From Deltaproteobacteria bacterium (GTDB taxonomy: Bacteria > Desulfobacterota > Syntrophorhabdia > Syntrophorhabdales > Syntrophorhabdaceae), in the NCBI GenBank assembly GCA_029559435.1, contig JAKQBZ010000046.1:1-21050 (forward strand): a DNA stretch of 21,050 bases, written 5' to 3'. Within the stretch, counting starts at the first letter, position 1. Each line of letters opens with the position of its first letter. The position numbers were made by a program, and so were the translations under genes. A model generated the notes under the pieces. The model was not told the DNA's origin. It saw only the letters and a list, made by a program, of their open reading frames with translations, and did not search any database. This document shows, piece after piece, positions 7,919 through 20,016 of this stretch.

Positions 7919-9451
7919 CTAAAAACCTGTCCTCGCGAAGAGTTTAGCGTATTCTGCCTGAGGCGCCTTTCCTTTTGCTATCTGCTCGTCCGAGAACCAC
8001 TTTTTCGGATCAACAACCTCGATCGGATATTTCGCCTTCTCGAAGGCATCCACGTATCTGAAAGGCACAGTGGCATCAAGCGCGATGGCGCCTGAAAATC
8101 TGATATTGGTCTGCGTCCAGTCCTTCTCGCCCGCCGAGCTTCTCTCTGCGGGCTGGAAGGTCTGCCCCGCACCTCCCGGCGACACGATCATGATGTCATC
8201 CTTGGCGTCGACGCGGGTGGCGATAGCCCACATCACATCGTCCATGCTGTAGATGTCGATGTCGGGATCAACAGCGATGGCAATCCGGGCTCCGATGGAG
8301 CAGGAAAGGGCGGTGGAGAGGATGTTCTTTACGAACCCTTCATCCCGCTGTCTGCGTTTCTTGACCTGGAATATCACGCCACCCCAGTCGGGGATTGCCA
8401 TAGGGATGTTGGTGTCTACGGTCAGCCCCGGGCAGACGCGCTCGGCCAGCTCGAGAAAGGTAGCGGTCCTCACCATGGTGTCGATGTTGTGGTCATCATA
8501 ACTGTGCACGCAGAGCGGATAGTAGATGGGGCGGTCCTTCCGGTGCGTAATGGCGGTTACCACAAATTTATAGGTGCGGTAGGCCTTACCCATGTACCCC
8601 GACCATTCGGGATGGAAGGGATAGACGCCTTGCTTTTGGTCGCGCTCGGCCAGCTCGCTCTCCCAGACCTTTTTTGTTGTGTCGAGATACCCTTCGATCA
8701 CGTATTCGGCCTGTGCGATCGAGTAGGCATCGATGGTCTTTGCCTTGACGATGTCAACGGGGAAACCCTGTACTGCCCCTGCGATCCCAAGCTCATCGCA
8801 TCCTGCCGGAAGGATCGTATAAACGAAGCCAGCGCCGGCCATCAGGGTACAGGCGGGCGGAACCCCCATGTTGATGGTCAGGGGTATGGGCTCCTTGCGG
8901 TAGAACTTTGACGCGATCATGTCGGTGTGAGAACCGGGTGAAATCTGGAAGGTGGAGAAATCAGGCCCACGGAAGAACATCCTGTTGTAGCTTATGTGGG
9001 TGCCTCCCCAGAACCATTTCCCCGTGGCGAGCGTGTTGCCCCCGCCCAAGGTCCTGCCCGGGTCAGAGGGAGTGTGCTTGATCATGGGAACGATAGGCCA
9101 GACATCGATGTTTTTGTCGATGACCACTTCCTGACAGGGCGCAGACTTTACCTCCTTCGGCGGGAGGGGTTTGCGGATGGCATCGAGGATCCTGAATTTG
9201 AAGGTCCTCTCAGTCCCCGCATCGAAAAGCTCGGCGATAAGGTTTCCGTCACCGTACAGGTTGGTGAAAAGTCTCCCGTTGGGATAACCTTTGACCTTGT
9301 TGAAGAGAATGGGGAGACCTCCGTCGAAATGCTTTTGAATACCTGTCATTTCCAGTTCCGGGTTGACCTCCACGTCTGTTTCCAGAAGTTTTCCCCTGGA
9401 CTTCAGGTGGTCGATGGTGGCCCTGAGGCTTGCTAAATAATTGTCAGCCAT
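7919..9451 (-). CDS. UbiD-family prFMN-dependent (de)carboxylase, divergent member
   Basis: The 510-aa product has an ATG preceded by AGGAGG 5 nt upstream. Its length and collinear pattern fit UbiD: the N-terminal region (LKSRGKLLETDVEVNPELEMTGIQK), the central DELGIAGAVQGFPVDIVKAKTIDAYSIAQAEYVIEGYL block (canonical DE..AGAL.G.P...V.....L.VPA.AE.V.EG) and a following PFHPEWSGY block in the position of the canonical GPFGE/D.TGYY. Confidence 0.8.
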   Translation of the reverse strand: MADNYLASLRATIDHLKSRGKLLETDVEVNPELEMTGIQKHFDGGLPILFNKVKGYPNGRLFTNLYGDGNLIAELFDAGTERTFKFRILDAIRKPLPPKEVKSAPCQEVVIDKNIDVWPIVPMIKHTPSDPGRTLGGGNTLATGKWFWGGTHISYNRMFFRGPDFSTFQISPGSHTDMIASKFYRKEPIPLTINMGVPPACTLMAGAGFVYTILPAGCDELGIAGAVQGFPVDIVKAKTIDAYSIAQAEYVIEGYLDTTKKVWESELAERDQKQGVYPFHPEWSGYMGKAYRTYKFVVTAITHRKDRPIYYPLCVHSYDDHNIDTMVRTATFLELAERVCPGLTVDTNIPMAIPDWGGVIFQVKKRRQRDEGFVKNILSTALSCSIGARIAIAVDPDIDIYSMDDVMWAIATRVDAKDDIMIVSPGGAGQTFQPAERSSAGEKDWTQTNIRFSGAIALDATVPFRYVDAFEKAKYPIEVVDPKKWFSDEQIAKGKAPQAEYAKLFARTGF

Positions 9452-11848: not shown

Positions 11849-14800
11849 TTAGCTGTCGAGAAGCTCCCTCACCTTTTTGAGAAGCTCATCCGGCTTGAGG
11901 GGCTTCAGGATAAGGTCGACGCCTTCCTCGGGTATACCTTTTTCCTCGATGATGTCATAGGTATAACCGCTCATAAAGAGGACTTTCAGGGAAGGCTGCT
12001 GTTTCTTTAACGCATCGAGCGTCTCTTTCCCGTTCATCCTTGGCATGATCACATCGAGGATCACCATGTCCACTGCCTGTTCGGAGAATATGCGGATCGC
12101 TTCAAGGCCATCTTCCGCCGTGATAACGGTATAGCCATTTTCCATCAAAACCATACTGATAAGGTTTCTTACCTCCTTGTTGTCTTCTGCTATGAGGATC
12201 TTCTCGGTTCCCTTTAAGGCGGCCTCGCTGCGCTGGCCCCCTTTTGCTTCAAGGCTCTGAGTGATAAGCGGCAGGTAGATGAAGAACGAGGTGCCCTTGC
12301 CCGGTTCACTTTTTACATCGATATAGCCGTCGTGCTGGTCAATGATCCCATAAACCAGGGAAAGCCCGAGCCCGGTACCCTTACCCACTGCCTTGGTGGT
12401 GAAAAAAGGCTCAAAGATCTTCGGCAGGACATGCTCGTCTATCCCCGTCCCTGTATCGGATACCATGATCTGCGCGTATTTCCCGGGCTTTCCAAAGCCA
12501 TGGATACCGACAAACTTGTCGTCCATGGTAAAGCGGGAAGTGTATATCGAGATAATGCCTCCCATCGACATTGCGTCGCGCGCATTGGTCACAAGGTTCA
12601 TGACAACCTGACCGATCTGGTTCACATCCCCGAGAACGACCAGCCTTTCATGCGTGAGATGGGTCTTGAGGTCAATGTCCTCTGTAAGCAGCCGCACGAG
12701 GAGCTTCTGAATGTTGGCGATAGCATCGTTCAATAAAAATGGTTTCATAGTGATCTGTTGTTTCCTGCTGAAGGCGAGGAGGCTTTGCGTGAGCTGGGCA
12801 GCTCTTTCCGATGAGGTAAGGATCTGGGAGATATAAGAAGATAGGGGGCTGTCCCTGTCTATTTTAAGCTGCAGAAGGCTTGCATATCCCATGATTGCGC
12901 TGAGGATGTTGTTGAAGTCGTGGGCAACCCCGCCGGCAAGGGTGCCGACGGCCTCCATCTTCTGCGCCTGTAAGAGCTGGGACTCAAGCTGCTTTCTTCC
13001 CGTTACGTCTGACGCGGTGAGGATATATGCATTGCTGCCCGTCCGGGAAACCTGCAGAAAGATATCCCTTATTGCGCCGTCTTTTCGCACCCATTTTGTC
13101 TCTGCCTGCCCTTTACGATACAGGACATCGCCGACACGGTTGAACTCTTCTTCGTCTGCGTAGAGGAAACGCGTGCTTTGTCCTTGCAGCTCGTTCTCGC
13201 CATACCCGGTGATCCTGCACATGTATTCATTGAACCATTCAAGAAACCTGTCCCTGATGCGGCATATGCCGATCGGCGATGCCTGGAGGATCGCCCGCTG
13301 CGCCTGCTCCGATTCAAGGACCTTCTTCTCGGACTGCTTCCGCTCGGTGATATCCTGCAGCGTGCCGGCCACATAAGAACGGCCCCCTTCAAGAACAGGG
13401 GCGAGGCCGCGTACCTCTGCCCACAGTTCTTTGCCTGTATCGGTGATCACCTCTGCCTCGATAACGAACGTTTCTCCCGTCGCCAGGCAGTTGGTGACCC
13501 TGTCCCTGATTAAAGGGATATACCGGGGCGGGAAGTATTTAGATCCCTCTGCAAACCCCGGCCGGTAGTCCCTCGGCGCCTCGATGATCTCGTATATGCC
13601 TTCTGTCCACTCAAGATAATCCGTATGCGGGTTTGCCTTCCAGCCGCCGAGGCGCGCGATGGACTGGGTCTGCTTCAGGAACAGCTCGCTTGCCGTAAGC
13701 TCGGCCTCGGCCCTCTTGCGTTTGGTAATGTCTTCATTGGTGCCTTCATAGAATATGATCTTTCCGGAATTGTCCCTGACCGCCCGCGTATTTGAAGATA
13801 TCCAGATGATGGAGCCGCCCTTGCGATATACCTGATGCTCGAAGTCCTCATCAACGCCATGGGCTTCCATCCTTTCCATAAAGGCCCTGCGTTCTTCCGG
13901 GTAGACATAAAATTGAGGCCCGAGGTCGGTGATGCTCTCTACCATCTCTTCAGGAGTTGCATATCCGCACATCTTCGCCATTGCGGGGTTAACGCTGAGA
14001 AACCGGCCCTCCGGCGTGCTCTGAAAAAAACCTTCAACGGCATTTTCAAAGATGTTCCGGTATCTCATCTCGGAGATCTGCAGCATCTCCTCTGTCTTTT
14101 TACGTTCGGTGATGTCTTGAATCGACGTTATAACGAAATCCACAGACCGGTCGGGGTTGCGGGAACACGATGCGGCAATATGGACATAGACAATGCCGCC
14201 GTCTTTGCGGAAGAACCGCTTATCCATCTCATAGGCATCGATCTCGCCTTGGAGCATCATGTTGAATTGGGCAAGATTGGGTTCCATGTCATCGGGGTGT
14301 GTCATCTCTGTCCAGGTCTTCCGTAAAAGCTCCTCTTCAGTGTAACCGAACATCTCGCAAAGCCTCTTGTTTACCCTGAGCCAGCATTTTTCAACTGATG
14401 TGATGGCGATGCCGATGTTGCCAAACTCGAACTGGGAACGGAAAAGGGCCTCACTTTCCTGCAGCGCCCGTTCCGCCTGTTTACGCTTTGTGATATCGCG
14501 GATAATGCCTTCTGTACCGAGGAAATTGCCTGCATCGTCGTAATAGAAATGCGTGGTAAAGGATGCGTAGAAAGGCGTACCGTCCTTTTTCTTTATCATC
14601 CCTTCAAAATCCTGTACCTTGCCACGCTTGCTGATCTCTCCTATCAGCCGTTCCCTGTCCTCAGGGTATACCCAGAAGCTGTCAAGGGACAGGCCGATCA
14701 TCTCCTCGACGGAGCCGTAGCCAAAAAGCGCCGCACCTGACGGGCTGCCCATCAATAGCCTGCCGTCCTTGTCAGACCGGTAGAATACATCCTGGATATT

Positions 14801-17317
14801 ATCGATCACGCTCCGGTACATCTGTTCGCTTTCTCTTCGCGCCTCGTCGGCGCGCTTGCGGCTGATGAGCCCCCACATCCCCTGCATGAGCAATGTGAGC
14901 TGCTGCACGTCGGATTCGTCATATTCAGCGGGCTTGTTCCCTACGCCGGCCAGAAGGACTATCCTGTTGCCTTCGAATATGGGTACATTCATGTGCCGGG
15001 CCAGCTTGACGTGCCCTTCGGGATATCCCTTTTTCAGCGGGCTCGGCGCATGATAGTCGTTGGTAATGACAGGGCGCCGCTGGCGTACCGCCTCTCCCCA
15101 GAGCCCGGTCTTATGCACGGGGTATATGATCGGCTTATCGGTGATGGCGCATTCGCCCATTGCGACTACAGACCAGGAATACATGGTAAGCGTCGTTTCG
15201 TTCTCATCGAGAAAAGCAATGTAGCCGACGGTGCTTTTTGTCAGCCTTACCGCCTCCTCTAATGCAAAATCGGTGATCTCATGGGTGTCCGAGCTGACCA
15301 TCTGGTTTAGCCTGAGTACCGCCTCGAGGCGCTCTTTGTTGAGCCGCAGGTCATCCTCTGTCTTTTTGCGTTCCGAGATATCGATGATGACCCCCCGGAA
15401 TCCTGCAAAATTGCCGTTTCGGAATACGGGGGCGCTGTAGGCGATGACAGGTATACGGGTACCGTCATTACGCACCATCGTGTATTCAGTGCCATGAGAT
15501 GAACCCTCTTTAATGATCTGTTTAAAACTATGGAGAACCCTTGAGCGTTCCTCCTCGGGGAATAATGTAAAAATATCAAAGTCCTGGTGAATGTCTTCCT
15601 GTGCATAACCGAGCATCCTCTTCGCTTCCCTATTGAAGAAGGTCAGGCGATAGTCTGCATCTATCTCATAAATGATCTGCGGGGTCAATTGGGCAATATC
15701 CCTGAATTTTTTTTCGCTTTCCCTTAATGCCTCTTCCGCCTTTTTGTGCTCAGCAATATTGCGTTGCACCCCCCAGACCTTCGTGAGAAGGCCATGCTCC
15801 ACAACGCCAAAATAGCTTTCTACGATATGAACAGGACGTCCGTCGGCTGCCAGTTCAATTTCCTCGCGGTCTATGACCCTGCAACCTTCCGTTTGCAGCA
15901 GGTCGGCCATCTGGGCGCCGCAATTGGGTGCGAAATTTCTTACCGGGCGCCCAACCATCTCTTCCGGTCGCAGGCCATACATGGCGGACAGGGCCTCATT
16001 TGCTTCCCCTGTAATGGCACGGTCCGCGATCTGTTCCTGAAGGACCTCATAGGGCTGATCAACGGGTACGGGAGGTATAATGTCAATTCGGAATATGCCC
16101 TCGCTTGCATTGGCGATAAAGTTCCTGTACCGCTCCTCGCTCTCCAGAAGCGCCGCTTCCGATCGTTTCTGCTCGGTGATGTCCAACAGGACACCATTAA
16201 ATATTGTCTCCTTTTCCTGCCTGTGAGGGATCGAGTTTCCCCTGAACCACATGATCTCTCCCGAAGGCTTTTGAAGCTTGCCTTCGAATTGCCACTCGCT
16301 TATGGTACGGATGGCGTTGTCGTTCGACGCTAAAAAGCTCTCCTTGTATTCCGGCAGGACCAGCTCGGTAAAACGTTCAAAAAAACCATCGGGTTCGGGG
16401 CTGATGCCGAACAATTTCATCGATTGACCGCTGATATAATATAATCCAATATCCCCATTGTCCCTGGCGTAGAACTGATAGACGACACCGGGAATATTTG
16501 AAGAAACCTCCCGCATCTTTTGTTCGCTTCTTTGCAGTACCTCCTCAACATGCTTGAGCCGGCTGATGTCTGTCATCAGAACGAGGACCGCGGGCCTGTC
16601 ATCCCAGGAGATGGGGATGGAGCTCGTTTGCATCCAGCGTATTTTGCCCATCGTGTCTACAATGCGCATAGAATAATTATGAGGAGCAAGGTCTCCCTCA
16701 AGCCTCTTCCTGTAATAATCCATCACGACAGGAAGATCTTCTTTGTAGATAAAATCGAAGAAGGGTTTTTGTGCAAATTCATCCATTGACATGGAGGCAT
16801 CGTGCAGCATCTTCGGGTTTGCATATGCTACCTTCCCGTCCTGGATCACCATTATGAATTCATTCACCCCTTCGACAAGGGCGCGGTACCGCTCTTCCGA
16901 TGCCTTGAGCGCCTTTTCCGTCATCTTCTGTTCCGGGATATCGGCAGGGGTGCCGTGCTGGAATGCATGTTCGGTCAGTTGTGTTCTGGCAGCAGACAGG
17001 ATGTCCCAAAGGGAGACGGCTATCTTGACGTTTTTCACGTGGGGCTTTATCGCAGCTTCGAGCGCCGACAGGGTCTCCAGCGTCTGCTTTATCAGCTCCT
17101 GCGCAGCAGGCCCTTTCAGCAGGTTCTTTATGTGGCGCACGAAGCTGTTCTTTGTGCGGCCGGACAGGTCGGCAAAGAGGGGATCAAGAAATCTGCGGGC
17201 AATACGGAGCCTCTCTTTTTCCGGCAGCCCTTTATATGGATGGATGCCCCGGAGTTTTTCCTGAAACTTGCCCTTGATCGTGTTCTGCAGCCGGATAAGA
17301 GGATCTGGTTCTTCCAC
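11849..17317 (-). CDS. Soluble multi-PAS/GAF hybrid sensor histidine kinase with C-terminal receiver domain
   Basis: The 1822-aa product has no hydrophobic segments. About nine PAS-like modules are each introduced by a coiled linker of the type SE(E/Q)xYR (for example [72 protein letters not shown]). One GAF domain lies at roughly nt 14850-15330. In HisKA ([17 protein letters not shown]) the phospho-accepting His1466 codon is at 12920-12922. HATPase_c motifs are [16 protein letters not shown] and GKGTGLGLS. In the receiver domain ([11 protein letters not shown]...[10 protein letters not shown]) the Asp1755 codon is at 12053-12055. The start is a GTG with GGGGG 6 nt upstream. Confidence 0.9.
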
Positions 17318-17423: not shown

Positions 17424-17477
17424 TCGCTATATGGGGCTGCCCCCGCAAACACGCCCATTGCTTATCTGACGTAATGC

Positions 17478-17505
17478 GTTCGGAGTTCGGCGTTCGGCGT
17501 AGAGA
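17478..17505. repeat. Heptanucleotide tandem array GTTCGGA GTTCGGC GTTCGGC GTAGAGA
   Basis: Read directly from the sequence. It is the inverted partner of the array at 17603-17630. Confidence 0.85.
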
Positions 17506-17549
17506 GCAAAAAAGAAAAGGCAGGGCCGATGACCCTGTCTCGTTTTTTA
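17505..17549 (-). terminator. Probable rho-independent terminator of the cytochrome c / cytochrome b operon (A-run and T-run on both sides)
   Basis: Hairpin CAGGG-ccgatga-CCCTG at 17521-17537. On the minus strand it is followed by CCTTTTCTTTTTTG, and on the plus strand by TCTCGTTTTTTAT. The stem is short (5 bp), so the strength is moderate. Confidence 0.55.
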
Positions 17550-17562
17550 TACTATACGGTCT

Positions 17563-17583
17563 GCTATGAGCTATCAGCTATAA
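17563..17583. repeat. Heptanucleotide tandem array GCTATGA GCTATCA GCTATAA
   Basis: Read directly from the sequence. It lies between the terminator hairpin and the right-hand GCCGAAC array. Confidence 0.8.
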
Positions 17584-17602
17584 ACCATGAGCCGTGTTTC
17601 TC

Positions 17603-17630
17603 GCCGAACGCCGAACGCGCTACGCCGAAC
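17603..17630. repeat. Heptanucleotide tandem array GCCGAAC GCCGAAC GCGCTAC GCCGAAC (reverse complement of the GTTCGGC array)
   Basis: Read directly from the sequence. 17602-17616 is the perfect reverse complement of 17485-17499 (15 bp), and 17620-17631 is that of 17491-17502 (12 bp). Confidence 0.85.
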
Positions 17631-17646
17631 GGATTTCTCTACAATC

Positions 17647-17681
17647 ACGATATACGATATACGAACGACGGTATACGGGTT
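17647..17681. repeat. Heptanucleotide tandem array ACGATAT ACGATAT ACGAACG ACGGTAT ACGGGTT
   Basis: Five ACG-phased heptads lie immediately 3' of the cytochrome b stop codon (17681-17683), and the last heptad touches it. Confidence 0.75.
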
Positions 17682-18310
17682 TAGGGTTTACTCTCGTCGT
17701 CGGGTTCTTCGGCGTATCCCGTGATCATTGATCGAACATAGGTGGTGATGCCTTTGCCGAGCGACGACATGTAGATATGGACGATGAGGTAAAGCAGGAA
17801 GCAGTAGCCCGTTATGACGTGGATCGCGTCGAGCACCCTTAGACCACCGACCATATCGATATACTGGTAGAAGAAAAGGATGTCGCTGAAGAGTATACCC
17901 GTTATCACGATAACCGGCATGAGCAGGAACATTACCGATGAGTACGCCAGCTTCTGGAGGGGGTTGAACTTTGCGCCGGGCGTCGGAGTAAAAGGAGCCT
18001 TTCCTTTTGTAAAATAGGTGTAGAGATAGTAGAGCGCCTGCCTGGGGATACCTTTGAGGTCAACAATATTGAGTATGTAGTGTTTTCCCAGGCCCTTTGT
18101 GAAAAGATAGTAGAAGAACCAGAAGAGGAAAGACAGGGCAAGAAGGTAGCCGAGATATTTGTGAAGCGCCACGGTAGTCCCGTATTGCGGAAAGCTGGTA
18201 ATATCGGGGATCCTCAAGTGTATTCCGGTAAGCATGAGCATGATGATGAGGAAGGCGTTTGCCCAGTGCCATATGCGGACAGGTAGCGGATGGAGGTATA
18301 TCTTTTTCAT
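17681..18310 (-). CDS. Membrane dihaem b-type cytochrome (PhsC/HydC/FdnI-like, Ni/Fe-hydrogenase b-type cytochrome family)
   Basis: The 209-aa product has four predicted TM helices. Conserved histidines sit in the usual places (VRIWHWANAF, ALHKYLGY, DAIHVITGY, LIVHIYMS), consistent with two haem b groups. The start is set to the ATG at 18310, which overlaps the cytochrome c stop as ATGA (18307-18310). The 29-aa N-terminal extension in the ORF track (to 18397) lies inside the upstream gene and is rejected. Confidence 0.8.
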   Translation of the reverse strand: MKKIYLHPLPVRIWHWANAFLIIMLMLTGIHLRIPDITSFPQYGTTVALHKYLGYLLALSFLFWFFYYLFTKGLGKHYILNIVDLKGIPRQALYYLYTYFTKGKAPFTPTPGAKFNPLQKLAYSSVMFLLMPVIVITGILFSDILFFYQYIDMVGGLRVLDAIHVITGYCFLLYLIVHIYMSSLGKGITTYVRSMITGYAEEPDDESKP

Positions 18311-19980
18311 CGTTTCAGAAATATCCTCCCGATTATATGGAGCATAATGAATATAAGAATGACCGCAAAAAGAGCAATGCCAAGGATGTCTATCCACTTG
18401 AACCCAAGCTCCTGCACCTGACCGGTCCGGTCTTTACCGCTGAAGCCGAGCAGCATCCTGATATCTTCGAGGTTTACCCTTTCTTCGCCGAGAAGGCTCA
18501 GGTCGGTGAAGACAGAGATGGGCGCGGCCCCGAGTATGGTGCCTTTAACGGGAATATAGAGATGATCCTCTGCGTCGGGCAGGATAAGGTACATGGAGTC
18601 GTAGAACGGGGCGTTATGCGAGTGGCATGTTGTGCATACCTTGCGCTTTGTGCCTTTTTCAGAGTAGTCGTGGTGGACCTTTGTCACGATGATCGAGCCG
18701 CCGACGAAAAGCTCCTCCTGGAATTTTTTCTGCAAAGCGAGGAAGAAGTCCGACAGCTCCCTGGATATTACCGCGTTGTCACCGTCTGCATCAATGATGT
18801 TCTTGAGATCTGCGTGGCCGCCGTATGCGTCCCTGATATCCCTGTACGTTAAGGCCTGTTTCTTGCCGCCTGACCGTTTGCCGAGGTAAAAGACGATGCT
18901 CTTTTGTGATTCAGGGCTGTGGCAGGTGGAACATTCGAGGTAGTTGAAGTGGAGGCGGGTATGCGGCAGCCAGGCATGTTTATCCACGTAGTCCTTATGG
19001 CACCGGGCACAGACATCGATCCTCTGCTTTGCGTTATATTCCCGGTATGCGGTTATGCTGTGGGGATTATGACAATCGGTACACAGCGCGGCGCCCTTTT
19101 TTGTATGAACAGAGTTTTTGTAAACCCCGTAAACCTCTTTGTGGCATTTCAGGCAGGTGTTGTCGCTGATCCGCTCCTGGGAGATATGACAATCAAAGCA
19201 GGCAATCCCTTTTTTCCCGTGGACCGTTGCCTTATATTCTTTGATGGAAGGCAGTTCAGGGATGAGGATCTTCGGGTCGGCGCGGAACGTGTATGACGAG
19301 ACCCCTGACAACCTGAGGCGCGCTTCCCTGAAGATGCTTCCGTCGCCATGGCATCCATCGCACTGAAGGGGTTTTTTGGTGACACCGTGGGCATCGCCGG
19401 CCGCAGAGTACGACCTGCTTATTGTATATAGATCCTTATAGTTCTGCTCCAGGTATGCGAGGAAGCGGTCCGATTCTGCCTGATCGACAACGCTGTTTTT
19501 GTCGGGATCTATCGTCTCCTTCCCGATCGCACCGCCCTTGCGGACGTATACGCGAAGCTGGGCCGTGGCCGACCCTTTTTTTATCTTTCCGTGGCATACG
19601 GCGCACCCCATGCTCGCCAGGTGCTTTTCTTTGGACGGTATTGACCCGTGCGCGATCCCCTTATGGCACGAAAGGCAGTTTTTTGTGCCCTTATCGAGAA
19701 AATGGACGGCGTGGCATTCCTTGCAGGAGAGGCCTCCGGCGCTGTGGATGCTTTTTGCGTATAGGGCAGAGGTCTCCTTATGGCACTCCGCGCACAATGG
19801 TTTTGCAAGCTTTTCCTGGTGCGGGAGAGAAGCGGTATCCTTGTGGCAGTCTGTACAGGCTGCCTTGCCGTGGTTGTATTTTTTGAAGGCATCGTGGCAT
19901 TCGAAGCAGTCATCCGGCCTTACGGTGGCATGTAGGGGGCCAACAAGAAATATGAACAGTACGGCAATGATGACGTACAT
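18307..19980 (-). CDS. Tridecahaem c-type cytochrome with N-terminal signal peptide and C-terminal transmembrane anchor
   Basis: The 557-aa product carries 13 CxxCH motifs: CFECH, CTDCH, CAECH, CKECH, CLSCH, CAVCH, CDGCH, CFDCH, CLKCH, CTDCH, CARCH, CSTCH and CTTCH. It has a hydrophobic N-terminus (VIIAVLFIFLVGPLHA-TV) and a C-terminal helix, WIDILGIALFAVILIFIMLHIIG, followed by the basic tail RIFLKR. No SD lies upstream of the ATG at 19980. Confidence 0.9.
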   Translation of the reverse strand: MYVIIAVLFIFLVGPLHATVRPDDCFECHDAFKKYNHGKAACTDCHKDTASLPHQEKLAKPLCAECHKETSALYAKSIHSAGGLSCKECHAVHFLDKGTKNCLSCHKGIAHGSIPSKEKHLASMGCAVCHGKIKKGSATAQLRVYVRKGGAIGKETIDPDKNSVVDQAESDRFLAYLEQNYKDLYTISRSYSAAGDAHGVTKKPLQCDGCHGDGSIFREARLRLSGVSSYTFRADPKILIPELPSIKEYKATVHGKKGIACFDCHISQERISDNTCLKCHKEVYGVYKNSVHTKKGAALCTDCHNPHSITAYREYNAKQRIDVCARCHKDYVDKHAWLPHTRLHFNYLECSTCHSPESQKSIVFYLGKRSGGKKQALTYRDIRDAYGGHADLKNIIDADGDNAVISRELSDFFLALQKKFQEELFVGGSIIVTKVHHDYSEKGTKRKVCTTCHSHNAPFYDSMYLILPDAEDHLYIPVKGTILGAAPISVFTDLSLLGEERVNLEDIRMLLGFSGKDRTGQVQELGFKWIDILGIALFAVILIFIMLHIIGRIFLKR

Positions 19981-19987
19981 AATACTG

Positions 19988-20016
19988 ATGGTAACAGAAG
20001 GCGGGGATTTTGTAAA
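19988..20016 (-). promoter_or_regulatory. Speculative promoter in the queE / cytochrome c gap
   Basis: Minus strand reads TTTACA (20016-20011), a 17-nt spacer, then TACCAT (19993-19988), then 7 nt to the ATG at 19980. Both hexamers are imperfect. Confidence 0.25.

Follow-up and report, generated by a model that had tools for sequence, protein, structure and literature searches.

A stretch of 21,050 nucleotides (nt) from a Deltaproteobacteria bacterium assigned to the Syntrophorhabdaceae (contig JAKQBZ010000046.1 of assembly GCA_029559435.1; the whole stretch is called the window below) carries on its reverse strand two overlapping genes for haem proteins. One encodes a c-type cytochrome of 557 amino acids (aa) with 13 haems (18307..19980; protein c), and the other a 209-aa dihaem cytochrome b with four transmembrane (TM) helices (17681..18310; protein b). 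These genes raise the question of which electron transfer system the two proteins form, and whether its architecture is a new one. The original prediction, made from the sequence alone, had taken the pair for a quinol/periplasm module of the Cbc kind by functional analogy, and had called the arrangement one that it did not recognise, with a topology different from that of Geobacter CbcBA. Sequence comparison establishes homology with CbcBA in both subunits, and the gene pair is very probably a member of this family of inner-membrane quinol:periplasmic-cytochrome oxidoreductases, with a CbcA that has been lengthened by tandem duplication of a haem module.

Relationship of the gene pair to CbcBA

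Protein b shares 42% identity over 199/209 residues with CbcB of a Geobacter sp. metagenome-assembled genome (MAG; locus L009) (E 3e-47), and residues 194-469 of c match CbcA of the same locus at 28% identity (BLASTP E 2e-28). The same residues of c match PDB entry 28pb, a 278-aa 'Cytochrome c' (phmmer E 1e-23), and the stretch of 28pb that this alignment shows shares 63% identity with CbcA of L009. Antunes et al. 2026 are cited for the crystal structure of CbcA from G. sulfurreducens, with the code printed as '2BPB' (review PMC13591261), and we infer that 28pb is this structure. L009 has the canonical cbc5 layout of a divergent sigma-54 response regulator, a small receiver protein, cbcA, cbcB and the dodecahaem cbcC; its CbcA (L009:7971-9035) has 355 aa, 7 CxxCH motifs and a C-terminal TM helix, and its CbcC has four c7-type trihaem domains. 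One deposited homologue of c (552 aa, 46% identity, full length) is already named cbcA.

CbcA has been described as a periplasmic multihaem protein with a C-terminal TM anchor that contains a His, encoded beside the 4-TM CbcB (Joshi et al.; review PMC13591261), and CbcB as a 4-TM dihaem cytochrome b that is usually annotated as 'thiosulfate reductase'-like (Joshi et al.). A tail-anchored c with a 4-TM b is therefore the CbcBA architecture and not a departure from it, so that the claim of a different topology falls away, and the analogy drawn by the original prediction, although right, reflects homology. Geobacter CbcL is likewise an inner-membrane quinol oxidoreductase that combines a dihaem b with a multihaem c; unlike the window pair, however, it joins a 6-TM b domain and 9 haems in one fused polypeptide, and CbcL and CbcBA have no sequence homology (Joshi et al.).

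The features of the pair that had been described earlier were all found. The cbcA-like gene encodes, in order, a signal-like N-terminus, a cap haem, two six-haem modules, a C-terminal domain and a TM anchor. CxxCH motifs lie at residues 25, 42, 63, 86, 102, 126, 207, 261, 276, 300, 324, 350 and 449 of c, compared with a mean of 0.07 and a maximum of 2 in residue-shuffled versions of the protein; CxxCK, CxxxCH or longer-spaced haem motif variants do not occur in c. Hydropathy shows c to be hydrophobic at residues 1-22 (ending LHA/T) and 524-557. The first of these segments includes the signal-peptide-like N-terminus (aa 1-19, MYVIIAVLFIFLVGPLHA/T; 19924..19980), and a small residue (A, G or S) precedes the conserved mature start in most members of an alignment of 33 homologues of c (42-87% identical). 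In the second, an AlphaFold2 (AF2) model has a helix at 528-554 (18319..18399), the C-terminal TM anchor, which carries His548 and Arg552 (HxxxR) near its cytoplasmic end and is followed by the basic tail GRIFLKR. In protein b, hydropathy shows about four hydrophobic segments, and its Pfam match is PF01292, 'prokaryotic cytochrome b561' (E 1.9e-24). The stop codon TGA of c (18309-18307) and the ATG of b (18310-18308) overlap as ATGA (18307..18310), with GGGAGG upstream at 18325-18330, and translational coupling of c and b is supported. The start of b is the ATG at 18310, and a listed 238-aa open reading frame with a GTG start is an upstream extension of b.

The survey of how often c and b occur together, which the original prediction had proposed, was made on 80 genome loci recovered with a profile of c. 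In 22/22 loci with a CbcA-like c, that is, with a match reaching CbcA-specific regions, b lies directly downstream of c, whereas none of the generic multihaem matches has a b there. The gene pairing is strict in all related loci. A 4-nt c/b overlap was found in the called genes of L081, L082, L084 and L087-L090; in four 13-haem loci other than that of the window, the overlap is accompanied by flanking genes that all differ. The eight best loci (L001-L008) belong to Syntrophorhabdus, Syntrophorhabdaceae or unclassified 'Deltaproteobacteria'/'Proteobacteria' MAGs, with shorter forms of c in at least L006 and L007. The named 13-haem homologues of c are from Syntrophorhabdus or Syntrophorhabdaceae, and the remainder bear class- or phylum-level labels only. 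The protein deposited as NCBI HNT69472.1, identical to c, is labelled 'cytochrome c3 family protein [Syntrophorhabdaceae bacterium]', and the cluster of b is labelled 'cytochrome b/b6 domain-containing protein [Syntrophorhabdaceae bacterium]'. The 13-haem, module-duplicated CbcBA is typical of Syntrophorhabdaceae and generically annotated in public records; labels such as 'cytochrome c3 family', 'cytochrome b/b6 domain' and 'thiosulfate reductase b subunit' mask a likely component of respiration or reverse electron transport.

Single-module cbcBA pairs were found in Geobacter, Desulfuromonadales, a SEEP-SRB2 MAG, Burkholderiales and Xanthobacteraceae, and so are spread much wider than the metal reducers from which CbcBA was first known. 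The SEEP-SRB2 pair is in L011, and L012-L016, L018, L020 and L022-L025, which include many Burkholderiales and Xanthobacteraceae/Alphaproteobacteria MAGs, also hold single-module cbcBA. CbcBA is one of the few conserved markers that have been proposed for extracellular or low-potential electron transfer in uncultured organisms, and the window pair extends the family into syntrophic aromatic degraders of anaerobic digesters.

Module duplication and EF-hand-type loops in the c-type subunit

The 13 CxxCH motifs of c do not agree with the seven haems of CbcBA, and the surplus is accounted for by duplication of a six-haem module. The N half of c (aa 20-245) is colinear with the C half (BLASTP E 2e-18, without composition correction), and profiles of the two halves made from the 33-sequence alignment match each other in hhalign with 99.7% probability (E 5e-26, 190 columns). 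Haems are paired between the halves as 42/261, 63/276, 86/300, 102/324, 126/350 and 207/449; the motif H-x-LP-x4-H aligns between the halves, as does the insert that separates haem five from haem six in each unit. By this alignment, c is one cap haem plus two copies of the CbcA six-haem module (1+6+6 = 13). The cap haem 1 (C25) and the N-terminal module (haems 2-7, aa ~30-245), with the first haem-free insert, are encoded at 19246..19923, and the C-terminal module (haems 8-13, aa 246-500), to which the similarity with Geobacter CbcA and 28pb belongs, at 18481..19245. The element that is new relative to known CbcA is this internal duplication.

The gene pair shares with G. sulfurreducens CbcBA (GSU0593/GSU0594, Cbc5 cluster) a 4-TM PhsC-like b of family PF01292, a CbcA haem module with an EF-hand-type insert preceding the last haem, a C-terminal TM anchor with HxxxR, the order cbcA then cbcB, and haems that are all apparently bis-His. 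In contrast to the 7 haems (1+6) there, c has 13; it adds a highly divergent N-terminal module and ~25 extra residues between the last haem domain and the anchor, and its host is a Syntrophorhabdaceae MAG instead of a metal reducer.

A protein library clustered at 50% identity was searched with c. The full-length 13-haem form of c is found in only three clusters, whereas many library proteins of 330-400 aa match only residues ~240-557; these are CbcAs with a single module and 6 or 7 haems. Three further families of 628-679 aa from metagenomes (P0242, P0246 and P0250) are also 13-haem double CbcAs, and resemble c in having 13 CxxCH motifs in a 1+6+6 layout, one EF-hand-type loop per module and a C-terminal HxxxR anchor. 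In module-by-module comparison, the C module of c has its nearest relatives among single-module proteins (209-230 bits), and its N module is about equally distant from all others (37-76 bits). P0242 and P0246 differ from c in having two modules that are far more alike: they match each other and single-module relatives at 163-269 bits, whereas the N module of c matches them at 40-76 bits. The N module of P0250 is also divergent (~75-111 bits). The modules of P0242 and P0246 are mutually close while the N module of c is remote from all, and doubling therefore arose more than once; module comparison indicates that other lineages made 13-haem double CbcAs independently, by separate duplication or fusion events. 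The library also holds a 580-aa natural CbcA-CbcB fusion (P0258), and such fusions are known (Joshi et al.). The haem subunit of this family is thus modular, with 6-, 7- and 13-haem versions as well as c-b fusions. What is gained by doubling is possibly a longer reach, more electron storage or another partner surface. A 19-haem protein (P0249) shares only the N-terminal ~310 residues of c.

The two haem-free stretches of c (residues 131-206 and 355-448), which the original prediction had counted as part of the unrecognised arrangement, are present and correspond to the EF-hand-bearing insert of the CbcA module, once per copy. Each holds one canonical 12-residue EF-hand-type loop, loop 1 at aa 158-169 (DPDKNSVVDQAE; 19474..19509) and loop 2 at aa 397-408 (DADGDNAVISRE; 18757..18792), and both fit the pattern in which position 1 is D, positions 3 and 5 are D/N/S, position 8 is hydrophobic and position 12 is E/D. 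Positions 1, 3, 5, 8 and 12 are kept in 29-33 of the 33 family members, among which Pfam matches were obtained for EF-hand_1 in 20, EF-hand_6 in 19 and EF-hand_5 in 12 (best E 2.9e-9); c itself gave no Pfam EF-hand match at E<=1. Loop 2 also aligns with DNNGDGKISLSE of Geobacter CbcA and DTNNDNYISLAE of 28pb. The CbcA module thus carries conserved loops of EF-hand type, whose binding of Ca2+ is putative. The literature searched contained no paper linking EF-hands with multihaem cytochromes; the paper on the CbcA crystal structure lay outside that search and may describe the loop.

Haem ligands, quinone site and direction of electron flow

All 13 CxxCH motifs are invariant in the 33 homologues of c, as are 13 further periplasmic His (37, 54, 79, 93, 111, 120, 198, 254, 292, 307, 335, 344 and 437). 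Thirteen invariant non-motif His for 13 haems suggest that all haems of c are bis-His coordinated and hence of low potential, in agreement with the midpoint potential of -279 mV given for CbcA (review PMC13591261). His548 and Arg552 of the anchor helix are likewise invariant in the 33 homologues, and HxxxR is present also in 11/12 other CbcA-like C-termini and in Geobacter CbcA.

The four His of b that the original prediction had pointed out (H15, H50, H164 and H178) do not vary among 21 homologues, CbcBs of Geobacter and of alphaproteobacteria included. Searching solved structures by phmmer with b alone gave no match, and a profile search alone succeeded, finding E. coli FdnI (1KQF chain C, E 1.7e-6) and HyaC of Hyd-1 (4GD3, E 1e-3). 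The invariant N116 and Q119 of b align with N110 and Q113 of FdnI, which presumably line the site for 2-heptyl-4-hydroxyquinoline N-oxide (HQNO) and menaquinone on the cytoplasmic side. The four His of b align with His18, His57, His155 and His169 of FdnI, which bind haems b(C) and b(P) in Fdn-N, and they have the FdnI/HydC-type pattern, in which TM1 and TM2 hold one His each and TM4 holds two, 14 residues apart. Protein b thus belongs to the same fold family as FdnI and HyaC, from which it differs in having as partner a tail-anchored multihaem cytochrome instead of the iron-sulfur (FeS) subunit of a molybdo- or NiFe enzyme, and in a similarity that is seen only by profile. By this alignment, the menaquinone site of b is probably near the cytoplasmic-side haem.

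Since b has a full set of four haem ligands, His548 of c is a fifth conserved His. It would lie at the membrane depth of H15 and H178 of b, that is, of the cytoplasmic b haem, and may possibly act in the quinone pocket, on a haem propionate or in something else. Four invariant FdnI-type His in b, as predicted here, do not match the reading of Joshi et al., in which CbcB provides 3 ligand His and CbcA 1. The quinone site, His548 and the Ca2+ loops are testable ideas that the pair provides.

Several observations weigh against assignment to CbcBA as set out here. The identity of 28% between c and Geobacter CbcA is low, and the N module has diverged strongly, with no more than 37-76 bits in comparison with any other module. 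Unlike the Geobacter pair, the window pair is without BccR/sigma-54 context and without a downstream cbcC: the BccR-type sigma-54 regulator, the receiver protein and cbcC are absent from the window and from L081, no -24/-12 (sigma-54) promoter match lies upstream of c, with such matches rarer than chance in the window, and the window encodes no periplasmic electron partner nearby. The AF2 model of c is moderate only (predicted local distance difference test score, pLDDT, 70; predicted template modelling score, pTM, 0.48), and a Foldseek search with it against PDB (library to April 2026) gave no match at E<=0.001. Apo models of multihaem proteins are poor in secondary structure. The side of the quinone site depends on the FdnI alignment at E 1.7e-6 together with the position of the HQNO site in FdnI.

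From these comparisons we infer haem occupancy, the side of the quinone site, the direction of electron flow, partners and a physiological role: the pair is most likely a low-potential menaquinol:periplasmic-cytochrome oxidoreductase. Protein b would hold two b haems across the membrane by its four FdnI-type His, and c would be exported, loaded with 13 bis-His low-potential c haems and tethered beside b by its C-terminal helix. Menaquinol would be oxidised near the cytoplasmic-side b haem, and electrons would pass from it through b(C), b(P) and the 13-haem chain to soluble periplasmic acceptors. With a quinone site on the N side, protons would be released inside and the membrane potential would aid the outward flow of electrons, so that the complex would spend proton-motive force instead of conserving energy. 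Such consumption would explain why CbcBA in Geobacter is associated with the lowest yield and is required only below about -0.21 V (Joshi et al.), and the FdnI alignment thereby offers, in a cytoplasmic-side quinone site, a testable reason for the low energy conservation of CbcBA. A menaquinol oxidase that spends proton-motive force would suit the reverse electron transport of a syntroph to H2, formate or a partner; reverse redox loops are part of the background on syntrophs, and the quinone loop of Syntrophus has been reported in both directions. It may further be speculated, and we think this rather unlikely in its full form, that the doubled EF-hand-bearing CbcA is the low-potential outlet of the quinone pool in Syntrophorhabdaceae, a potential-driven menaquinol oxidase for periplasmic H2/formate or direct interspecies transfer in syntrophic aromatic degradation, with 13 haems and two Ca2+ loops as reach or gating adaptations absent in Geobacter CbcA.

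The same complex could run in reverse, from periplasmic carriers reduced by H2 or formate to menaquinone at the cytoplasmic face, as an energy-conserving half of a redox loop like Fdn-N or Qrc, for example in respiration with an internal acceptor. The sequence allows this direction equally, and b aligns with FdnI in its haem ligands and two quinone-site residues; the two-way quinone loop of Syntrophus, the reversible redox equilibria between reduced CbcA and periplasmic partners (review PMC13591261), and the presence of a flavoprotein (with a twin-arginine translocation (TAT) signal in L090) and a small cytochrome near the pair in L090 and L087 also favour it. We regard it as possible but doubtful, however, because the characterised CbcBA is a quinol oxidase toward low-potential acceptors (Joshi et al.) and because bis-His haems at about -280 mV would be poor entry points unless the donors were very reducing. 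It was also considered that the pair might serve specifically as the first step in electron transfer to the cell exterior or directly to another species, with the doubled wire reaching far across the periplasm to an outer-membrane conduit: cbcBA is among the proposed markers of extracellular electron transfer (Joshi et al.), the haem chain of c is twice as long, and L087 and L088 hold further large multihaem cytochromes. However, porin-cytochrome or outer-surface cytochrome genes occur neither in the window nor in 10 kb of L081 beyond it, and the neighbour genes of the pair are not conserved. Syntrophorhabdus is described as an H2/formate syntroph (title of Qiu et al. 2008), and such a dedicated role appears distinctly unlikely.

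Two readings that separate the proteins from electron transfer of the CbcBA kind were rejected. Protein b might anchor a thiosulfate/polysulfide reductase, hydrogenase or formate dehydrogenase (Fdh) encoded elsewhere, with c unrelated; many homologues of b are labelled 'thiosulfate reductase cytochrome b subunit' by the Joint Genome Institute (JGI), and its best NCBIfam match is PhsC (NF011582). This match, at 120.8 bits, is far under the 204-bit cut-off, however, and Geobacter CbcB matches equally sub-threshold. Catalytic Phs/Psr, hydrogenase or Fdh subunits nearby, which the original prediction had named as an observation that would overturn it, are absent from the window, L081 and four further loci, and molybdopterin, FeS and hydrogenase genes from ~10 kb around the pair in five loci; porin genes are likewise absent nearby. 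The sub-cut-off score, the lack of phsAB-type neighbours and the constant pairing of b with a CbcA-like c that it overlaps by 4 nt or adjoins, together with the natural CbcA-CbcB fusions, make this reading highly improbable. Equally improbable is that c is a catalytic multihaem enzyme of the nitrite, sulfite or hydroxylamine reductase type and not a wire: NCBI gives the name 'nitrite reductase subunit c552' to one homologue, and c has weak matches to the cytochrome c552, c554 and NrfB-like families, but these are under the Pfam cut-offs, the haem motifs are ordinary, without CxxCK or another unusual form, and exactly 13 spare His for 13 haems leave no obvious open coordination site.

Genomic surroundings of the gene pair

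The gene string queH, DUF2905, queC, queE, c, b, PAS/GAF hybrid kinase, typA and UbiD is found on 20 metagenome contigs of up to 72 kb. In the window, 51 bp separate the end of queE (TIGR04508, 291 bits) from the c gene downstream of it; neither queE nor queC lies beside the c-b pair in any other related locus. A functional link to the queuosine genes was rejected on this ground, as the original prediction had supposed, and the adjacency of queE is incidental.

A sigma-70-like promoter match, TTTACA-17-TACCAT with TG, lies in the gap between queE and c (19988..20016, reverse strand), and a terminator-like hairpin followed by a T run lies 144 nt past the stop codon of b (17521..17537, reverse strand). 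Together they would make c-b its own transcription unit; both are consensus matches that are no commoner than chance. The gap between b and the kinase gene (17473-17635) contains the heptad repeats GCGTTCG x3.6 and CGCCGAA x4.3, which make a 28-nt imperfect inverted repeat enclosing the terminator-like hairpin at 17518-17540 (RNA fold z-score -3.2). A 15-nt motif of this repeat has no other copy in the window, and an Rfam scan of the window gave no match. Directly downstream of c-b, at 11849-17317 on the reverse strand, is the gene for a hybrid histidine kinase of 1822 aa, in which numerous PAS domains are combined with a GAF domain and a receiver. Kinase homologues are near the pair also in L007 and in the Geobacter locus L009, and a regulatory link of the kinase to c-b is possible.

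The rest of the window encodes tripartite ATP-independent periplasmic (TRAP) transport, a GntR regulator, a UbiX-like flavoprotein, a CoA ligase and a UbiD-like decarboxylase, a gene content that fits an anaerobic degrader of aromatic acids. In particular, the reverse strand at 299-9451 holds genes for DctP, a GntR/FCD regulator, a UbiX-like flavoprotein, a fused DctQM-type TRAP permease, an NMT1-like binding protein, an AMP-forming CoA ligase and a UbiD-family decarboxylase, and this cluster looks like a module for activation and decarboxylation of an aromatic dicarboxylate (phthalate-type).

Related loci have other neighbours. A FAD_binding_2 flavoprotein and a small c3/c7-type cytochrome are encoded immediately upstream of the 13-haem pair in L090 (L090:4888-7040, the flavoprotein with a TAT signal) and ~4.5 kb upstream of it in L087 (L087:134-2494), and they are a candidate periplasmic reductase served by the complex. 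In L088 (L088:7001-15208), the 13-haem c-b pair is followed by an 11-haem tail-anchored c with a PF01292 b, then by an 8-haem tail-anchored c (with His in the anchor) with a 312-aa PF01292 b, and then by a 15-haem c, so that this locus is an array of differing modules of a tail-anchored multihaem c and a cytochrome b.

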